IMG/VR virus record: IMGVR_UViG_3300044731_000783
Location: 1-63,770 of that record
Origin: a virus
Lineage: Duplodnaviria; Caudoviricetes
DNA: 63,770 nt
Strand: one strand, 5' to 3'
Positions 6,976 through 63,770 of the stretch are shown piece by piece. A model generated the notes under the pieces. It saw only the letters and a list, made by a program, of their open reading frames with translations, was not told the DNA's origin and did not search any database. The position numbers and the translations under genes were made by a program. Positions within the stretch are counted from its first letter, which is position 1, and every line of letters starts with the position of its first letter.

Positions 6976-7607
6976 TTATCACTTGTTTTTTTTCTAACGG
7001 CAATAACTTTTGACCATTTTGTTTTAAACTTCTCATAATAAGTTTTAAGTTTTTGAATCATTTCAAGGAAATCTTCGTCTATTTGCATCATTGTTCCATT
7101 TATATAAACGCCGTTATTTTCTCCTATTGAAAAGAAGAATTCAACGTCATATTCCGTTATTTTTCCGGACCATTCTACATTATTTGGGTATAGATTTAAT
7201 TTGTTGAAGTCAACAATTTCTGAAACCTCTGAAACAAATTCATCCATACTTTCTTGAAAAGCGGTTTTGTCATCAGTTGTTAGTTGTAAATCTTTTGTTT
7301 CTTTACCATGAATGTATAATATTCCACCTGAAATTCTATAACCCTTTTTTTTGTCTGATTTTATACTATCACTATCGTCTTTTTCTTCGTCATCAGCTGT
7401 TTCATATTCAATATCTCTTTCAATACTTTTTTTAGGATTATCTCTTTTAGTTATATTATTTGGTGTGTCGATTTTACCATCTTCACCTTGTTCTAAAATA
7501 AGTCCATATCTTTTTTTAATTTCGGTAGATTCCTGAATTAATTTTTCACCACCTAAAATTGCTCTAGATTTTTTTAATAAATTTCTAATTTCTTCACTAT
7601 TACTCAT
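6972..7607 (-). CDS. Hypothetical protein
   Basis: 211-aa ORF with acidic linker. Confidence 0.7.
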   Translation of the reverse strand: MSNSEEIRNLLKKSRAILGGEKLIQESTEIKKRYGLILEQGEDGKIDTPNNITKRDNPKKSIERDIEYETADDEEKDDSDSIKSDKKKGYRISGGILYIHGKETKDLQLTTDDKTAFQESMDEFVSEVSEIVDFNKLNLYPNNVEWSGKITEYDVEFFFSIGENNGVYINGTMMQIDEDFLEMIQKLKTYYEKFKTKWSKVIAVRKKTSDK

Positions 7608-8196
7608 TGTCTAATTTTTTAATAAAATATTCAAAATCAAAAGCCGGACTTAAATCTGTAGCATCTTCATCAATATTTGATCTTGTTATGATACCACTAA
7701 ATGTTTCCAATCTATTTGTTTTTGTGTTATGTCCGATACAAATTGGACTGATTTTAAATTTTTCGGAGAGTTTTATACACAAATTTGCAGTTTCATCTAA
7801 CTGTTTTTTTGTATATGGTTCCCAGAAAAAATAATCTCGCCATTTTTTATCAAAAACCTTTTCCTTATAAATACTTCCTAACCAATTAATGTGATAACTT
7901 TTTAATGGTTGTTTTTCCAACCAACCTAAATTTTCTAAAGAAATTATTATCGATTGTTTATCGTATATTGGGTTGTTTAATAATTTACCGTAATTTTCAT
8001 CATCCATTGTTTGTAATATAATACCTTCTTTTGTTATTATATAATGCGGTAATTTATTATATTTGTTGTTAAACCTATGTCTTAAACTTGTTAAGTACTC
8101 GTCACCATTTCTAGAAGTATGTGTTAATATTATTTGGATTTTCTTATCTTCTTTACCGATATGATTATAAATTTTTTTGTCAAGTATTTTAGACAT
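7600..8196 (-). CDS. N-acetylmuramoyl-L-alanine amidase-like protein (Amidase_2 fold)
   Basis: IILTHTS, PHYIITKEG, SIIISLEN, PYTKKQL, CIGHN, DLSPAFDF motifs. Confidence 0.75.
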   Translation of the reverse strand: MSKILDKKIYNHIGKEDKKIQIILTHTSRNGDEYLTSLRHRFNNKYNKLPHYIITKEGIILQTMDDENYGKLLNNPIYDKQSIIISLENLGWLEKQPLKSYHINWLGSIYKEKVFDKKWRDYFFWEPYTKKQLDETANLCIKLSEKFKISPICIGHNTKTNRLETFSGIITRSNIDEDATDLSPAFDFEYFIKKLDNE

Positions 8197-9229
8197 TTTT
8201 TGTATATGTTAATCTTTTTATACTTGATTCAAGTGGTAAGGACTCAGTTGGTATAAAATTTTCTTTTGTTGTTGTGGTTGTTTCTACAACCCAATAATCC
8301 TCATTCTCAAAATATTCTTCATCATTAGCTTGGTCGGTACTTGGTCGGTGGTTAGTCGGTACTTGGTCGGTTTCTTGTACGGTAACTTGTATGGTATCAT
8401 GTATGGTATCATGTATGGTAACTTCGTCTTTCCGTTTCCCTTTAAATGCTTGATTTGTTGCAATAACTAAAGTAATTGCCAGTGGATCAAAAACAAAAAT
8501 TAAAATCAAGATAAAAAGGTTTGCGGTTCTTTTAACATTCCAATCTAATAATTCACTAATATATTTAATAGCACCTAACTCACTTCCGGATATCTCCTGG
8601 GATTGCATATCAAGAATCTTAACATCAAGTTTTGTAATACTATCATTAAACGTATCAATTTTTTTAGATATTGTGTCACGTCTTACTTGAGCTTCTTTTA
8701 GTTGTCCTTCAAATGATTTTCTATTTGCATTATTTGCTCTTGTAATTAATTGACCAGTTTTTTGATCGACAGTTTGTGTTGTCGTGTTATTAGAAAGACC
8801 ATCTCTTAATTTTGTTATATCACCATCAAGAGTTGTTTTTTCTTTTATTAATTCAAGTTTTATCTCTTCAAATCTTTTTTTCTTTACTTCGACATTTTTT
8901 ATTTGTTTTTCACCAATTTCAAGTTTTGCGATATTCCCTTGAAACCCGGTACTTAATAGTCCGTAAATACCAAGTGATGTTATTACAGATAAAGTAATTA
9001 GTGCTATTGTCATATAGATTTTTAATGCACCATACGTTTCTTTCCACTTGTCGTGAAGATATGTTGCTATCGCTATCTTTGATATTTCAAGGAATGTTCC
9101 CATAATAATGACTGGTATTGCAACACCAACAAATACAACTGATAGACCAACAACACTATAATATGCGGCGGTTCCGGATAAACCTAAAGCACAAAATAAT
9201 AAAAACCAGGGTAAAAATTTTTCTTTCAT
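8189..9229 (-). CDS. Multi-TM membrane protein with long coiled coil
   Basis: Three N-terminal TMs, coiled coil, C-terminal TM (IFVFDPLAI), low-complexity tail. Confidence 0.75.
   Translation of the reverse strand: MKEKFLPWFLLFCALGLSGTAAYYSVVGLSVVFVGVAIPVIIMGTFLEISKIAIATYLHDKWKETYGALKIYMTIALITLSVITSLGIYGLLSTGFQGNIAKLEIGEKQIKNVEVKKKRFEEIKLELIKEKTTLDGDITKLRDGLSNNTTTQTVDQKTGQLITRANNANRKSFEGQLKEAQVRRDTISKKIDTFNDSITKLDVKILDMQSQEISGSELGAIKYISELLDWNVKRTANLFILILIFVFDPLAITLVIATNQAFKGKRKDEVTIHDTIHDTIQVTVQETDQVPTNHRPSTDQANDEEYFENEDYWVVETTTTTKENFIPTESLPLESSIKRLTYTKNV
8329..8421. repeat. Compound short tandem repeat array (4 x 11 bp then 4 x 12 bp)
   Basis: GTCGGT at 8333, 8344, 8355, 8366; CWTGTAYGGTAW at 8374, 8386, 8398, 8410. 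Confidence 0.85.
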
Positions 9230-9239
9230 ATTTTATATA

Positions 9240-9779
9240 TTATAAATAAACAACTTGTATATTTAAAGTATTAAATTGTTCAAGGGTAACTCTTTTAGCA
9301 CTTTTATTCTGATCTTTGGTTTTTAAAAAATTACCATTTTCCGAAAATGCTGATGTTATTATATTAAAAAAATTCCCATCTTTACTAATTAAAAATTCCA
9401 TATAATCAAAATTTTTATCATCTTCATTATCATCTCTTTTTTTTATGAAAATTAGTTTATTATTTTCTGGGTTTATTTTATTAAAACTTTCATAAACTTT
9501 GTTTAATTCAGACCTAAAAGTATTTCTAACCATGCTATCTGGTACCGCCAATCTTGGTTGAGCTTGAAATTTAGAACGTCTTGTTTCGATATATTCTTTA
9601 TATAATTCAACTATTTCATCATATGAAAGATTTCCAAATCTTTCCTCTCTCTGGTGATATGTAGATTTTAACTGAATTAACTTATTATCAATTAATTCTG
9701 AAAAAATTAATTTACCGCTTTCTTTTTTTCTACCACTTTCAAATAAAATAGTATTTTTTAATACGTTAATAAGTTTCAT
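9240..9779 (-). CDS. Hypothetical protein with leader-like N-terminus
   Basis: Start reassigned to 9779 (MKLINVLKNTILFES) because the longer start lies within a terminator and TATTTAT sits at 9784-9790. Confidence 0.7.
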   Translation of the reverse strand: MKLINVLKNTILFESGRKKESGKLIFSELIDNKLIQLKSTYHQREERFGNLSYDEIVELYKEYIETRRSKFQAQPRLAVPDSMVRNTFRSELNKVYESFNKINPENNKLIFIKKRDDNEDDKNFDYMEFLISKDGNFFNIITSAFSENGNFLKTKDQNKSAKRVTLEQFNTLNIQVVYL

Positions 9780-9793
9780 ATTTATAAATATAC

Positions 9794-9819
9794 AAAAAGG
9801 TGGGTTTTGGCCCACCTTT
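9794..9819 (-). terminator. Intrinsic terminator
   Basis: Minus strand AAAGGTGGG-CCAAAA-CCCACCTTT running into a T-tract. Confidence 0.85.
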
Positions 9820-9934
9820 CTGATTTTCCAATAATACGACTTGAGGAATTTAAACCCGACACTCTAACCGCGGTATCACGACGACTTACGACCCTAGGAG
9901 TAAGCTTCCCAGTCTTTGTGTTAACCACATTGAC
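9794..9934 (-). ncRNA. Candidate structured small RNA (~140 nt), family unrecognised
   Basis: GC-richer intergenic stretch between a consensus Bacteroidota promoter and a terminator; several stems; only a 14-codon ATG ORF. Confidence 0.55.
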
Positions 9935-9938
9935 AATA

Positions 9939-9969
9939 CAAAGATATAAATATTTTTTAATCTACCAAA
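9939..9969 (-). promoter_or_regulatory. Bacteroidota-type -33/-7 promoter
   Basis: TTTG-N19-TATCTTTG. Confidence 0.75.
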
Positions 9970-10808
9970 ATTTCTTGACGAATATTTTTAAAAATATGTG
10001 TAATTACATCTACGGTCCAACCATTTCCTAACATATTAAACCTTTGTGTATTTGATACCATTGATGAGTAATTATCTGGGACCGTCTGTAATCTTTCACA
10101 TTCAAGTGGTGAAAATAACCTATCCTCACCAGTTACAGCTTTTATCTCCAAATAACATTTTGGTGTTATATTTTTACCCCATCCGTGTGCCAATTCACGG
10201 GTAAGTGTTGGTGCCTTGCCAGTTGCTTTATAATTTTTAGCATAATAAAGTTGTGCTTGTATTGTTTTTGGTGGTAGTATTTTATGTTCTCCAGAATAAT
10301 CAATAATATCTTTAACTAAGATTCCCTTATCTTCCGGTTGTTCAATGCCTGGTATATTTGTCCAGTATAATCTTTCTCTACTTTGAGCTGAAACCAAATT
10401 ACTATTTATTCTTATTGGTTCAACACCCATATGTTCTGTAATTACTTGTTCGTGTTCTTTTTTCATTTTAACATTTTCAAGTAAAAAATATTTTGGGTTT
10501 AATTCTTCTTTTAATCTAACAAATTCAAAAAACAACTTACTTCTTGGGTCGTCAAAATTTAATCTTTTGCCGGCAAATGAAAATCCTTGACAAGGTGAAC
10601 CACCAAACATAATATCAATTTTTGGTAAATCACTTCCTTTAACATCTAAAATATCACCAATCTGAATTGTTTCCGGATAATTGTGTTGTGTTACCTGGAT
10701 AGCGTATTTATCAATTTCTGAAGCAAAATACTTATCATACTTTATCCCAACTCTATTAAGAGCAATCTGTCCACAGGACATTCCATCAAATAAACTTAAT
10801 ACATTCAT
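9957..10808 (-). CDS. DNA (cytosine-5)-methyltransferase
   Basis: LFDG motif I, GSPCQ, LENV, QSRER, GNGW. Confidence 0.95.
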   Translation of the reverse strand: MNVLSLFDGMSCGQIALNRVGIKYDKYFASEIDKYAIQVTQHNYPETIQIGDILDVKGSDLPKIDIMFGGSPCQGFSFAGKRLNFDDPRSKLFFEFVRLKEELNPKYFLLENVKMKKEHEQVITEHMGVEPIRINSNLVSAQSRERLYWTNIPGIEQPEDKGILVKDIIDYSGEHKILPPKTIQAQLYYAKNYKATGKAPTLTRELAHGWGKNITPKCYLEIKAVTGEDRLFSPLECERLQTVPDNYSSMVSNTQRFNMLGNGWTVDVITHIFKNIRQEILVD

Positions 10809-11659
10809 AGTCCTTTAAATATATGTGAAATTACATCAACTGTCCACCCATTTCCAATCATTTTTTTTCTTTGGTTTAAAGAAACTAATGAAGTGTAATT
10901 ATCTGGTAGTGTTTGTAATCTTTCATATTCAAGAATGTTGAGTTCCCTCATAATATTATTAACAATCACACCATAATTACAAGCAGTGTTTAATGTGTTT
11001 GTTTTTCCGTTACTAACACGACCTCTTCTATTTTTACTACTTGGAAATTCCAAATTTACACAATCTCCGTGTTTTGCAAATAAATACCCTATTTTTGTTC
11101 CGTTTTTTATTTTAAAAATGTTATCTTTAATATCAAGAATAATTCTATTATCATCTACTATTTTTTCATCCCCATTTGACTCTAAAATATCAAGTATATT
11201 AATATTTTTATCCTCTATATTTTTATCGAATGGGATATTGGTCCAATACAATCTCTGTCTTTTCTGTGCTGAAAAAAACTTACTATCAATCATAACTGGT
11301 TCAAAACCAATTGTATCTGTTATGATTTTTTCCCATTCTTTTTTCATTACAACATTTTCAAGAAGAAAATATTTTGGTTTAACTTCATTTAATACTCTAA
11401 TGTATTCCCAAAATAAACCACTTTTACCATCAAATCCAGAATTATCACCAGACCTACTAAACGATTGACATGGAGATCCACCAATTACTAAATCTATCTT
11501 TGGTAAATTTTTTGTGTCTAAACCAACAATACTACCCAACTGTATTGTATCTGGGTAGTGGTTTTGTGTTACGGTAATCGCGTGCTTATCAATTTCTGAT
11601 GCAAAATATTTATCATACTTTATACTGGCTCTATTAAGAGCAATCTGTCCACAGGACAT
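10751..11659. repeat. 31-bp exact direct repeat shared by the two MTase 5' ends
   Basis: ctctattaagagcaatctgtccacaggacat at 10751-10781 and 11629-11659. Confidence 0.9.
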
Positions 11660-11689
11660 CCCATCAAAAAGAGAAAGTACATTCATCAT
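10805..11689 (-). CDS. DNA (cytosine-5)-methyltransferase, tandem paralogue
   Basis: LFDG, GSPCQ, LENV, QKRQR, GNGW. Confidence 0.95.
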   Translation of the reverse strand: MMNVLSLFDGMSCGQIALNRASIKYDKYFASEIDKHAITVTQNHYPDTIQLGSIVGLDTKNLPKIDLVIGGSPCQSFSRSGDNSGFDGKSGLFWEYIRVLNEVKPKYFLLENVVMKKEWEKIITDTIGFEPVMIDSKFFSAQKRQRLYWTNIPFDKNIEDKNINILDILESNGDEKIVDDNRIILDIKDNIFKIKNGTKIGYLFAKHGDCVNLEFPSSKNRRGRVSNGKTNTLNTACNYGVIVNNIMRELNILEYERLQTLPDNYTSLVSLNQRKKMIGNGWTVDVISHIFKGL

Positions 11690-12486
11690 AGATAGTCAAA
11701 TAATTCAGATGATTCATTACGAAGTCTACGAAGTGCTTTCTCTTTAATCTGTCTAACTCTTTCTTTTGTTAGATTGAAATCTGAGCCGATGTCTTCAAGT
11801 GTTCTTGGTGTTCCTGTAAGACCAAAGTAATCCCCTATGATAGATTTTTCACGGTCATCTAAAACATTTAACAATGATAATAACTTATCTTTTAAAATAT
11901 CTTTTGTATCAAATCCCGCATCTGGTGCTACCGCATCCGGATTTTCAATTAGGTCAATAAGCGTATCACCTTCCTCATTGATATTCATATCAAGATTGAT
12001 AATCGAAGGTAGTGATGTGAACTTATCGTCAAGTTTTTTACCAGATTGTTCAACTTCTTTTTTGGCTTTTTGTAAGTCTTGTACAACATTAACCGGGAGT
12101 CTAATTGTTCTAGCATTGTCATTTAGTGACTGGATGATTGATTGTTTAACCCACCATACTGCGTATGATATAAATCTTAAATCCTTATTCCAATCAAAGT
12201 TTTTAATTGCTTTCATAAGTCCTAAGTTTCCTTCAGCAATTAAGTCTGGAAGGTCAAGGCCTTGATTTTGATACTGTTTTGCAACTGTAATTACAAAACG
12301 TAAATTTCCTTCCAATAACTCACCTTCTATTTTTTTTCTTTCTCTTTCTGAAATCTCATCAGATTTCATTTTTACGGCTAATTCTTTTTCACGATCAGGT
12401 GTCATAACCTTAATCTTTCTAATGTCTTTTAGGTAGTGATAAATCTCTTCCTGGTTAATTGGTACTCCGGTGTTTTTTTCTTTCAT
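11686..12486 (-). CDS. RNA polymerase sigma-70 factor (RpoD/SigA-like, lacking region 1.1)
   Basis: NLRFVITVAKQY, DLIAEGNLGLMKA, RFISYAVWW, RTIRLP, TKERVRQIKEKAL. Confidence 0.95.
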   Translation of the reverse strand: MKEKNTGVPINQEEIYHYLKDIRKIKVMTPDREKELAVKMKSDEISERERKKIEGELLEGNLRFVITVAKQYQNQGLDLPDLIAEGNLGLMKAIKNFDWNKDLRFISYAVWWVKQSIIQSLNDNARTIRLPVNVVQDLQKAKKEVEQSGKKLDDKFTSLPSIINLDMNINEEGDTLIDLIENPDAVAPDAGFDTKDILKDKLLSLLNVLDDREKSIIGDYFGLTGTPRTLEDIGSDFNLTKERVRQIKEKALRRLRNESSELFDYL

Positions 12487-24218: not shown

Positions 24219-26717
24219 TTAGAAATCTATTTTTACAACATATTGTTGGATTCCTTGTCTTAATGTTGGTGATTGTAGTTTAGACATAACAAGGACATCT
24301 TTATTATCATCAAGTAAAGCAATTTCAGTAATGTATGATTTTGTTCCACCACTCCAAGATGGATTTGTTGACACCTGAAATTCACTAGAACTTAAATTTA
24401 TTTTATATTTCATCTCATAAATTGTTGCTTGTATGTCTGTTTCAAATGCACCATAAAAATAATACTCGTCACCAAAATTAAGTTTTTTTCCAGTTGTGTT
24501 ATTTGGTGTTAATGGTATATAATCATTTAAATTATAGTATGGAGCAATATCATAATTGTCTGGTGATATTATAAATGTAGTTCCAGTTAATGATGACTGT
24601 GTAACATATCCATTATTAAAATTGTTACTAATTTGACTTGTAAAATCAATTAATCTCCATTGAGTTGGGTCTGGTCTTTCACCTGTATTTACTTTTTGTG
24701 CTAATATTTGGAATGTATCGGCGTAATAACCAAATGGTAAATCACAAGTTGGACAATAAATACTTGTTGTAGTTGTTGTTACCGGATAAAAAGTTGTAGT
24801 TGTTGTTGTATAAGGAAATGTTGTTGTGGTTGTTGTTGGCGAACTTCCTGGTTGTACCAAACAATTAAAATCACCCCCAAATCTTACAGCAACATTCTTT
24901 GATACCTCTGGGTTACACTCATTATTATTACCAACAATGTATGGATAATAATTACAATGTAGTGAATTTGTAAATCCAAATTTGTTTGATAAACGATATG
25001 TTATAAACATAGTTTGACTGTTTCCAGTAATAATACCTTGTGATGTTGTTGTTGTATCACAAGTATTTGGTGTGATTAAAGAAAGTTGTGGTGCTGGTAA
25101 TGTCCAGTTTCTATTTGCTTTATATGACATTGCCGCAATAATTTCTTCATCATCAATTATAATCATTTTACTATCCGGAAAAACTTTACCAACTCTACTT
25201 GGTATTCCATCAACATTTGGGTTTGTATCCCATAAATGATAATACCTAATTCCAGGTTGGTTCATATCTTCGTTCTTTTTTGATTTGATAAAATGAACTT
25301 GGAATAATTCTTTATCTTCAAAACCTGGAGGATCGACCCAAAATGTTTGTCCAAAACAACAATCTGGATTTTTATGCCACATTAACCAAGGAATGTGTAA
25401 TTTAAAATTTCGTGCTTGACCGGTCGTATCTGTTGGGTTTGTTGGGTTATAGGGTTGTAATGCAAATTTTTCACCATAAAAGAAATCTATTGTTTGGTTT
25501 GTGTAGTGAATAATTGCAATTGCTTTTTGTTCTTCCGGTTTAACTTGTACTATCTCACCAAAAGAATTGTTATAATAAGTCATACTTGTATCTGTTTGAC
25601 CCTTACTTGAGTTGTAACCAAAATATTCTTTAGTTCCAATGTAATCTACGGATCCAAATTTCGTGTAGTCTTCATATAGGTTTGATATTAATCCGGCAGG
25701 ATTTTCAGTCCAAGGAATATTCATATTCCAAACTTTTACATCAAATTGATCGGTATCACAAATAGATTCAAAATCAATAACTTGTTCACCCCAATGTGGC
25801 ATCGGTGTTACACTATCATATATTTGTTTCATATTTGATGGATAAATAATTACCCTAGAATAACAATTTAACTGAAAATATGTGAAATCTGGTGTTGGTC
25901 TATCTAGTGTTATTGTGTTTAAACAAACATCAACAATTCGATATGTTAAAATTGTATAACAACTATTTGCCGGCATAAAACATTCTGGTTCCGGAGGCAA
26001 TGGACACTGTGGACTAGGTGTTGGTGTAAAACAAGGTGTCTTACTTGGTGTGGGTGTTGGTGTAGGACTAGCACAAGGATCTGTTGGGTTAATAGTTGTT
26101 GTCGATGTTGTAGTTGTAGTACCAGTTGGTGTTGGTGTTGGTAATGGAACATTTACACATTCATAATTATATTTTGCTCTACCATCATAATATATTGTTA
26201 TAATATCACCAATCTGTGGTTTTGATTCATTAACATTACTATTACCTGAATAAATTAACTCAATTTTATTTGACCCATTTAATGTTGACATATCAACAAT
26301 ATAGTTTGGGCTTACAACATATTTGTTACCAACTAATACATCCCAATTTATTGTTGTTGCTGTTGTATTACCGGTAAAAAAACCTCTAAGTGGTGCTCTA
26401 TTAAAAACCGGTTCAATTACAGAATCCATAAATGGAATACCATAAGTGTTTGACTGATTTGAGTCGGCATAGTACGGATATTTAATATATTGTTTGTTTG
26501 ATTCTGGAACGCCACTTGAGTTTTGACTATTAAACTGTGGTTCCAAAACCATACTATTTGACTGATTGTAAGTTGATGATACTTTATCATAAGAAACTTC
26601 ACTATCTCCAACTTGGAAATATGAAATTTTAAAATTACCTTGTGATAATTTTTGTCTTCCTGTATCTGTAACTCTTGTACTTACAAGTCCTGATGTATTT
26701 TTAAGTATATATGCCAT
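24219..26717 (-). CDS. Putative baseplate/tail-fibre attachment protein with PT and poly-Thr linkers
   Basis: N-terminal TDTGRQKL...FQVGDSE and C-terminal YITEIALLDD...SKLQSP recall tail-collar/fibre attachment domains. Confidence 0.6.
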   Translation of the reverse strand: MAYILKNTSGLVSTRVTDTGRQKLSQGNFKISYFQVGDSEVSYDKVSSTYNQSNSMVLEPQFNSQNSSGVPESNKQYIKYPYYADSNQSNTYGIPFMDSVIEPVFNRAPLRGFFTGNTTATTINWDVLVGNKYVVSPNYIVDMSTLNGSNKIELIYSGNSNVNESKPQIGDIITIYYDGRAKYNYECVNVPLPTPTPTGTTTTTSTTTINPTDPCASPTPTPTPSKTPCFTPTPSPQCPLPPEPECFMPANSCYTILTYRIVDVCLNTITLDRPTPDFTYFQLNCYSRVIIYPSNMKQIYDSVTPMPHWGEQVIDFESICDTDQFDVKVWNMNIPWTENPAGLISNLYEDYTKFGSVDYIGTKEYFGYNSSKGQTDTSMTYYNNSFGEIVQVKPEEQKAIAIIHYTNQTIDFFYGEKFALQPYNPTNPTDTTGQARNFKLHIPWLMWHKNPDCCFGQTFWVDPPGFEDKELFQVHFIKSKKNEDMNQPGIRYYHLWDTNPNVDGIPSRVGKVFPDSKMIIIDDEEIIAAMSYKANRNWTLPAPQLSLITPNTCDTTTTSQGIITGNSQTMFITYRLSNKFGFTNSLHCNYYPYIVGNNNECNPEVSKNVAVRFGGDFNCLVQPGSSPTTTTTTFPYTTTTTTFYPVTTTTTSIYCPTCDLPFGYYADTFQILAQKVNTGERPDPTQWRLIDFTSQISNNFNNGYVTQSSLTGTTFIISPDNYDIAPYYNLNDYIPLTPNNTTGKKLNFGDEYYFYGAFETDIQATIYEMKYKINLSSSEFQVSTNPSWSGGTKSYITEIALLDDNKDVLVMSKLQSPTLRQGIQQYVVKIDF

Positions 26718-63176: not shown

Positions 63177-63770
63177 TTACATCATATTATTATCCTCATT
63201 TTCGTCATAATCATTAAATGATGTTTTAACTTCTTCCGGTGAATAATCTTCAATATCATCAGATGTTAAAACATATTCATTTTTTCCTGATTGTCTCATC
63301 TCTTCTTGTTTGTCAACAAAAAAGTCAGACAATTTTTGTTTAAATGGCCCAGAATCTAAACTTCTTAATTCAAGTTTTTCTTCTGGAGTTTTTGGTTTAA
63401 ACTGATCAAATTTAGTTTCAAGACTATTAATCTTTTGTACTAACTGATCCATTTCACCTAATTTTGTTTCTAAAGTTGATAATTGGTTAAATAAATTATT
63501 AAAATATTCCTCTTGTTTATCTGACATTGATTTTTGTGTGTCAACAAGATCTGTAATATCTAATTCTTCTTCGCCACCTTCTTCACCTTCAGTTTCTGTA
63601 TCTAATTCTTCAACATCCGCATCTTGTGCAATATCAACTGGTGGTGCTCCTGTTGGAGCTGGTGTTCCTCCCGGTGGTGGTGGAACATCTCCTTCTGGTG
63701 CCGGCGGCGCTCCTCCCGGTGGTGGTGGAACATCTCCACCTGGTAATGGTAAGTCTCCTCCCGGTACTGG
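63177..63770 (-). CDS. Pro-rich/acidic coiled-coil protein (start lies beyond the right window edge)
   Basis: The 116-aa ORF extends in frame to the edge: PVPGGDLPLPGGDVPPPPGGAPP...EELDITDLVDTQKSMSDK. Confidence 0.8.
   Translation of the reverse strand, partial: PVPGGDLPLPGGDVPPPPGGAPPAPEGDVPPPPGGTPAPTGAPPVDIAQDADVEELDTETEGEEGGEEELDITDLVDTQKSMSDKQEEYFNNLFNQLSTLETKLGEMDQLVQKINSLETKFDQFKPKTPEEKLELRSLDSGPFKQKLSDFFVDKQEEMRQSGKNEYVLTSDDIEDYSPEEVKTSFNDYDENEDNNMM
63666..63737. repeat. 27-bp direct repeat, 45-bp period (GDVPPPPGG)
   Basis: tcctcccggtggtggtggaacatctcc at 63666 and 63711. Confidence 0.9.

Follow-up and report, generated by a model that had tools for sequence, protein, structure and literature searches.

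The closest described arrangement to the one reported here is that of type III toxin-antitoxin modules, in which, according to the available excerpts of PMC3401426, a promoter, a pseudoknotted RNA and a terminator are followed within 1-50 bp by a gene for a protein of about 170-190 amino acids. A wider pool of possible counterparts comes from a 2023 survey of intergenic sequences in IMG/VR, which yielded 8495 unnamed candidate structured RNAs (PMC10690425); in the portion of that paper available, many of the candidates have terminators or fixed positions upstream of genes, like the RNA described here, and no function is assigned to them. Large aquatic phages that are predicted to infect Bacteroidota were described in 2025, as stated in the accessible part of PMC12619734. 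The element considered in this report occupies positions 9794-9935 on the minus strand of a 63,770-base stretch of phage DNA (the whole stretch that was analysed, referred to as the window) and, as judged from sequence comparison, is a real and new family of structured phage RNA. To our knowledge, very few small RNAs of Bacteroidota phages or of jumbo phages have been described, and we know of none that explains this RNA. The published full texts, to the extent that they were accessible, contain no description of it, and it may sit unnamed in the supplementary alignments of PMC10690425.

The window is rated 22% complete by CheckV and its relatives among IMG/VR contigs reach 270-304 kb, so that the window is a fragment of a jumbo phage genome. 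Its genes lie on the minus strand almost throughout. The DNA runs that contain the stretch from 9794 to 9969 are lake-water metagenomes from 23 studies, and comparison of the stretch with the phage collection of GenBank returned the dcm gene as its sole match and no close relative. In the direction of transcription the gene order around the RNA, all on the minus strand, is a sigma-70-family factor (11686-12486), two C5-cytosine methylases (10805-11689 and 9957-10808), the RNA, a 179-aa open reading frame (ORF) without a family (9240-9779), a membrane protein gene (8189-9229) and an amidase gene (7600-8196). The second methylase gene, dcm, ends with its stop codon at 9959-9957 and is directly upstream of the RNA, while the 179-aa ORF is the RNA's constant neighbour on the other side. 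The methylase paralogues are arranged in tandem and overlap (9957-11689). Contigs from one DNA run (X5) skip 10444-11380 or 10484-11385, which suggests variants with a single or recombined methylase.

The promoter-like site of the RNA, TTTG-N19-TATCTTTG (9969-9939, minus strand), was read directly from the sequence; its TTTG box (9969-9966) is located inside the final codons of dcm, and TATCTTTG (9946-9939) is 11 nt past the methylase stop. We take the TTTG/TATCTTTG site to be the Bacteroidota promoter consensus. A site of the form TTTG-N17-21-TAnnTTTG is found at most 110 nt upstream of the RNA core in 32 of 35 distinct contexts. Two contexts, L117 and L130, have no promoter of their own (out of 34 with complete upstream sequence), and in the third context without the site, L173, the end of the locus cuts the upstream sequence. 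At the opposite end of the element a terminator scan located an intrinsic terminator (9822-9793, minus strand) with a stem of 12 pairs, six of them G-C, followed by T5. Terminator-like sites numbered 3 in 2 kb versus 0.8 expected, and the stem and T run are also encountered in the relatives whose sequences were compared; the terminator stems vary between versions with identical cores. The initial annotation had described TTTG-N19-TATCTTTG, a G+C-richer intergenic stretch and a strong terminator, and all of these were found on the minus strand. G+C content is 47% at 9800-9899 and 51% at 9855-9934, versus 30.1% for the whole window, and the RNA stretch is the second-highest 80-nt window in G+C overall and the highest outside coding sequence. 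The other top 80-nt peaks (63649-63728 and 25987-26066) lie inside ORFs; the regions at 63640-63770 and 25987-26140 consist of repeats with many codons for G, P and T within large minus-strand ORFs. Host polymerase would transcribe the RNA from the TTTG/TATCTTTG site, and transcription would terminate at 9794.

Related loci were collected from IMG/VR contigs, 80 by way of the sigma factor and 80 by way of the membrane protein, and blastn located an RNA core of 74-100 nt in 12 of these 160. The closest relatives (99% sigma identity) lack the RNA, and have in common with the window the methylase end and the promoter only. An 18-letter pattern of the core matched 16 IMG/VR stretches, and in metagenomes the core was confirmed in 25 of the 29 stretches matched; the others were three chance matches (L219, L228 and L231) and one stretch that ends after the hairpin designated P3 (L213). 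An exact 33-nt pattern had no match in IMG/VR. A match from the genome collection, to a contig of a Lewinellaceae metagenome-assembled genome (L233), was dismissed as chance, as its flanks are unrelated, and provides no hint of a host. Altogether 22 distinct versions of the window's subtype, A1, were obtained, with RNA cores of 74-95 nt that are about 90% identical between versions. The A1 covariance model, applied with default filters to 164 sources, recovered A1 copies only. In three loci (L041, L048 and L062) the RNA follows the sigma gene region with no dcm upstream, and it is therefore not an appendage of the methylase.

The secondary structure of A1 was derived from a MAFFT alignment of 19 of the 22 distinct versions; L213 was excluded as incomplete, and L214 and L222 were excluded as their cores duplicate others and the A-rich tail alone differs. 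Over four helices 97.2% of 398 cells are paired, versus 35-50% in controls slid by 1-3 columns. Covariation among homologues, which the initial annotation had named as a check on the structure, was found at 5 of 21 pairs that have changed on both sides across the 19 versions, a number reached by none of 500 shuffles. From its 5′-end, the RNA starts with a variable hairpin (9917-9929, minus strand, as are all elements of the fold) that reads UGUG/CACA in the window and ACAAAC/GUUUGU in most relatives, such that the hairpin is kept among relatives and the sequence is not. P1 (9894-9912) consists of CUGGGA/UCCUAG, with 9912-9907 pairing with 9899-9894 around a 7-nt loop (9906-9900). P2 (9858-9877) consists of GAUAC/GUGUC, where 9877-9872 pairs with 9864 and 9862-9858, leaving A9863 bulged, and the 7-nt loop has the sequence RCGGUUA. 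P3 (9845-9857), helix 4 of the alignment, is a small GGG/UCC hairpin with an A-rich loop. P4 (9827-9844), which was traced by eye from the alignment rows, is a UCAA/UUGGA hairpin with one bulged G and is followed by a run of A.

All cells of P1 and P2 (100%) are paired. P1 has two double changes (C-G in 16 versions and U-A in 3; A-U in 18 and U-A in 1), and P2 has double changes in three of its six pairs, with a closing pair that spans the bulge. Three pairs of P3 are invariant, including a G-U pair in 19 of 19 versions, so they show no covariation, and a fourth pair is open in 11 of 19. The third pair of P4 is, by eye, G-C in 8, U-G in 5 and A-U in 6 of the 19 versions; MAFFT leaves the 3′ strand of this hairpin out of register. 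G-U pairs that are present in 19 of 19 versions (P1 and P3) establish the gene strand as the RNA strand. The folding energy is unremarkable, with a z-score of +0.75 for the core and of -1.42 when the terminator is included, and, since it is no better than that of shuffles, the case for structure rests on comparison. The CUGGGA/UCCUAG and UGAUAC/GUGUCG helices that had been proposed from the window sequence are present and are kept in relatives, with double changes. A long-range pairing of UGUGGU with ACCGCG plus CAC with GUG had been proposed as well, but its 5′ partner is in the hairpin region that is replaced in most relatives, and this pairing was dropped as it shows no conservation among them.

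The loop of P1 can engage in a further interaction (9884-9905, minus strand), namely a pseudoknot or alternative stem in which loop positions 9905-9900 (GCUUAC) pair with 9889-9884 (GUAAGU). This pairing had also been anticipated, and it is present in 19 of 19 aligned versions; the helix is 100% paired in A1, with a one-sided change alone (G-U in 17 and A-U in 2). In the RNAalifold drawing the loop-downstream helix appears as a simple stem and P1 is absent, and the pseudoknot is preferred over the plain stem because P1 has double changes. The linkers between the two knot helices are 1 nt and 5 nt, which is the classical H-type geometry. An equivalent loop-downstream pairing of 5-6 bp, composed of other letters, is found in a second subtype (A2) and, by eye, also in a third (A3) and in a different RNA of these phages (type B). 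When the 20 nt downstream of P1 were shuffled, the observed complementary run was reached in 12-16% of cases for A1, 2-6% for A2, 7% for A3 and 19% for type B (P from 0.02 to 0.19), so that the complementarity taken by itself is of weak significance. The pseudoknot is plausible because the pairing recurs at the same place with different letters.

A2 is a diverged RNA that precedes a 168-aa class of the ORF, and five versions of it have been noted in 15 of 23 loci. Placed on the same five helices, its cells are paired in 130 of 130 cases versus 36-50% when slid, and it differs from A1 in letters at P1, the knot, the P2 stem and P4; two of its pair positions are variable, and the changes are one-sided with pairing kept. 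With filters off, the best match of the A1 covariance model in three of three A2 loci is the A2 RNA, in register, with scores of 12.0, 11.8 and 9.8 bits (E 0.3-0.9) and one chance match of 10.7 bits among them, so this likeness appears weak by score and telling by position. A3 is the third RNA, located before a 163-aa class of the ORF, and possesses, by eye, a 6-bp loop-downstream complement; the A1 covariance model does not detect it. In DNA run X4 one contig matches the window between 10050 and 9921 and carries A2 sequence beyond that point, so that a co-occurring strain has a different cassette, with the switch at 9921, within the 5′ hairpin of the RNA.

The association of the RNA with its downstream ORF extends over all three subtypes, as the ORF starts 109-123 nt past the core motif in 33 of 35 distinct contexts. 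The two exceptions are L213, which has no ORF, and L220, where the RNA runs straight into the membrane protein gene; with an RNA that lacks the ORF, the link between the two is not absolute. In the window the ATG of the ORF is 15 nt beyond the T run of the terminator. A tblastn search with the 179-aa ORF found homologues in RNA-bearing loci only (30 loci with 11 distinct upstream regions). The three RNA subtypes correspond to three ORF subfamilies of about 179, 168 and 163 aa, and RNA subtype and ORF subfamily change together. The neighbouring proteins are 46-60% identical, versus about 90% for the RNA core. In 8 of the 23 loci from the A2-type ORF search the ORF is 44% identical and is not preceded by the RNA, and such RNA-less homologues are awkward for an obligatory toxin-antidote pair. 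At L191-L199 this 44%-identical subfamily adjoins a divergent gene and has the motif TATTTAT 7 nt before its ATG.

The same motif is located 4 nt before the ATG of the window ORF (9784-9790, minus strand) and precedes the ORF in every subtype compared, RNA-less copies included. In the window, 12 of the 53 ORFs on the minus strand have a copy at most 40 nt upstream of their start, versus 1.08 at random positions, which are mostly coding, so that the enrichment over AT-rich spacers is smaller than 12 versus 1.08 implies. The 12 sites are 4-23 nt upstream of the ORF starts, many of which belong to structural genes (minus strand, for example 57967, 54327, 53562, 51229, 34584, 26730, 9790, 9248 and 5252). 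TATTTAT may serve in translation, as a signal, or as a promoter specific to the phage, in which case it is perhaps the phage sigma factor that uses it. If it is a phage-specific promoter, the ORF would be transcribed alone and the terminator would represent a true 3′-end.

The ORF family is composed of 118 clusters at 90% identity, all unnamed and without a Pfam domain. The window protein has no match in Pfam, PHROGs or PADLOC; other family members gave sub-threshold rows only, such as MuF_C in 2 of 10 at E 0.02, below the cut-off, and ten remote members yielded nothing above the cut-off in Pfam. Comparison with the PDB gave no match by profile and none by Foldseek at E <= 0.001. The AlphaFold model of the ORF, built from a 10-sequence alignment, has a pLDDT of 72 and a pTM of 0.71; its top Foldseek rows (HigB2, YoeB, RelE and ParE) have E values of 0.3-2.6 and probabilities of at most 0.16, and were set aside as no evidence. 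BFVD contained one uncharacterised relative only, and the ESM Atlas no usable match. A profile search of 1.84 billion representatives gave 90 matches, all unannotated, among which long multi-stretch matches look like repeat noise, and a single-protein locus search with the ORF gave 13 stretches, none of them confirmed. All three subfamilies keep residues T40, H42, R47 and G49 unchanged. The A1 proteins are basic, with a pI of 9.1-9.5, and those of A2 and A3 are acidic.

Searches of the window and 10 loci returned no match in Rfam 15 at the gathering score and no tRNA or tmRNA gene with ARAGORN, in keeping with the initial failure to recognise a family. With Rfam at E values up to 10, terminator-driven noise only was seen, and no riboswitch. 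6S RNA is a long, mostly double-stranded rod with a central bubble that resembles an open promoter. The suggestion that the present RNA is 6S-like does not hold, as it folds into a series of short hairpins and has no 6S match in Rfam.

Other small RNAs are encountered in the same region of these genomes. The phage clade has a second small RNA, type B, which is much commoner (for example L031:7645-7752, L099:5370-5477 and L017:6802-6909, with 40 more versions) and forms five helices, with 98.3% of 924 cells paired and 9 double-changed pairs in 98 cells. It often starts 3-4 nt past the stop of the sigma gene or of the small ORF; in some cases it has a promoter of its own, and frequently the next gene is a convergent one. 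By eye, type B is like the A subtypes in its order of parts, with a hairpin whose loop can pair further on, then two hairpins and a longer one, an A-rich spacer and the terminator, yet it differs in having no profile similarity to A (the B model finds nothing on A, and the A model nothing on B) and in its frequent position right after a stop codon or before a convergent gene. Applied to the window, the type-B model detected neither B nor A, its best match of 16.3 bits being inside a gene on the other strand, and type B itself has no match in Rfam among the 10 loci searched. In the nearest relatives, further G+C-rich and structured-looking RNAs (types C-F) are located behind the same promoter (L002:8541, L004:8508, L119:5379, L153:5433 and L041:6831, and additionally L003:8550, L010:7738, L049:9796 and L007:6831), and L041 has RNA types C, A and B in a row. 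The interval between the sigma gene and the membrane protein gene has the appearance of an island in which small-RNA cassettes can be exchanged.

The comparisons show that the element is conserved and strand-specific, that its helices have undergone compensatory changes and that it shares a cassette with an ORFan. With regard to function, protein binding with the neighbour's product as partner is favoured: the reading we tentatively prefer, at a little under an even chance, is that of a new phage small-RNA family in a cassette with an ORFan, acting by binding a protein and likeliest that encoded by its own neighbour. By comparison, the RNA has, in order, the variable 5′ hairpin, the hairpin with its plausible knot, two hairpins with conserved loops, the fourth hairpin, the A run and the terminator; the second half of the cassette, an ORFan of 163-179 aa, begins about 15 nt past the terminator, and its protein would make contact with the RNA. 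Neither a nuclease nor an RNA-binding fold can be recognised in the ORF product, which is basic in A1 only; both points speak against this reading, as do the lack of a promoter in L117 and L130 and the lack of tandem repeats. At the other extreme, it is highly improbable that the element has no function as RNA and represents either a gene for a small peptide or simply the 3′ untranslated region of the dcm operon with its terminator. Two metatranscriptome runs contained 5% of the sampled words; one of them (X23) gave a single 202-nt contig of depth 2.6 (9879-10078) that bridges the dcm end, the promoter and the first 70 nt of the RNA, as expected of an operon end, and the other (X24) gave contigs of the dcm genes only, where contigs of this kind carry no ends or strand and may stem from DNA carry-over. 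A peptide could be read from the sole frame that is open through the core, which is uninterrupted in 13 of 19 versions and has stops in 6. The 14-codon ATG frame noted at the outset is indeed present, with its ATG at 9930, alongside a 48-codon GTG frame at 9782-9928, and its start is absent in most relatives; the stops in the sole open frame and the missing ATG are the reasons for regarding the region as non-coding. The compensatory changes in the helices, and the occurrence of the element in L041, L048 and L062 without dcm upstream, also argue against an untranslated end or a peptide gene. The analysis supports the original proposal of a structured non-coding RNA that has a promoter-like site and ends in a terminator, in that the element is conserved and strand-specific.

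Two further readings grant the RNA a function that does not involve the neighbouring protein as a partner. A free-standing small RNA that acts in trans as a decoy, sponge or regulator, with the ORF as a neighbour by shared inheritance in the island, is unlikely but keeps a modest chance. It would agree with the RNA's own promoter-like site and strong terminator, with the unrelated RNAs that fill the same slot behind the same promoter in the nearest relatives, with the three different RNAs in a row in L041, with the cassette swap at 9921 in a co-occurring strain and with the retention of the RNA without an ORF in L220; it is at odds with the tracking of ORF subfamily by RNA subtype and with the fixed spacing, and there is neither a known target nor an apparent unstructured seed region. 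Less probable again, with a rather small chance, is a cis-acting leader, a riboswitch-like attenuator whose core would sense a ligand or host factor and set the terminator before the ORF. It is a riboswitch-type feature that a conserved, structured domain precedes the genes of a single family at a set distance, and here the position is constant in 33 of 35 contexts; the core is far better conserved than the gene, the layout of compact pseudoknot and terminator (with an A-rich linker in A2) is of the appropriate kind, and in L117 and L130 the element is inside an operon without a promoter. A weak hint in the same direction is that in folds ending before the 3′ arm of the terminator, 7 of 19 versions show pairing between the 5′ arm and the segment of the P1 loop. 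However, this alternative pairing is missing in 12 of 19 versions and in the window copy, where 2 of 12 nt of the 5′ arm pair upstream, and to other partners. The terminator stems vary while the invariant core shows no matching change, with no covariation between core and terminator stems, and Rfam offers no riboswitch even at E up to 10. In addition, most positions around the knot are different between A1 and A2, which is unlike a shared ligand pocket, and the ORF keeps its own TATTTAT with or without the RNA.

The significance of the finding is that a conserved RNA with a plausible pseudoknot, which co-varies with an ORFan, represents a concrete RNA-protein pair, which could be a repeat-less relative of type III systems, an autoregulatory operator or a new attenuator. 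The presence of different RNAs behind the same promoter in near-identical phages suggests cassette exchange like that of accessory genes. If confirmed, the family and type B would merit Rfam entries and would improve the annotation of lake viromes.

Compared with known systems, the locus shares features with two classes of element. The preQ1-I, fluoride and SAM-II-like riboswitches are small RNAs with an H-type pseudoknot directly before a terminator and gene start, and the present RNA is like them in this layout and in being better conserved than its gene. It differs in having three extra hairpins, no covariance-model match and no conserved antiterminator, and the region where a pocket would be expected is unlike between the RNA subtypes. 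With the type III systems (ToxIN, CptIN and TenpIN) it shares the order of promoter, RNA, terminator and gene, seen here in 33 of 35 contexts, and RNA and protein types that are cognate. Here, however, the RNA is a single unit of 140 nt and not a tandem array (TRF at a minimum score of 30 found no repeats at 9700-10000, where a 7-nt direct repeat at 45-nt spacing is all that occurs), the ORF is outside the ToxN/AbiQ, CptN and TenpN families according to Pfam, PADLOC and PDB, and homologous ORFs also occur without the RNA. The locus is not a member of the ToxIN, CptIN or TenpIN families, since it lacks both a repeat array and a protein like ToxN, CptN or TenpN. By analogy with these systems, and as a speculation to which we give a small chance, the RNA and the ORFan might constitute a repeat-less fourth kind of RNA-protein toxin-antidote or effector module of jumbo phages, in which one pseudoknotted RNA per protein would replace the processed repeat arrays, and which would be carried in a rapidly exchanging cassette island for use in competition between phages or against host defence.
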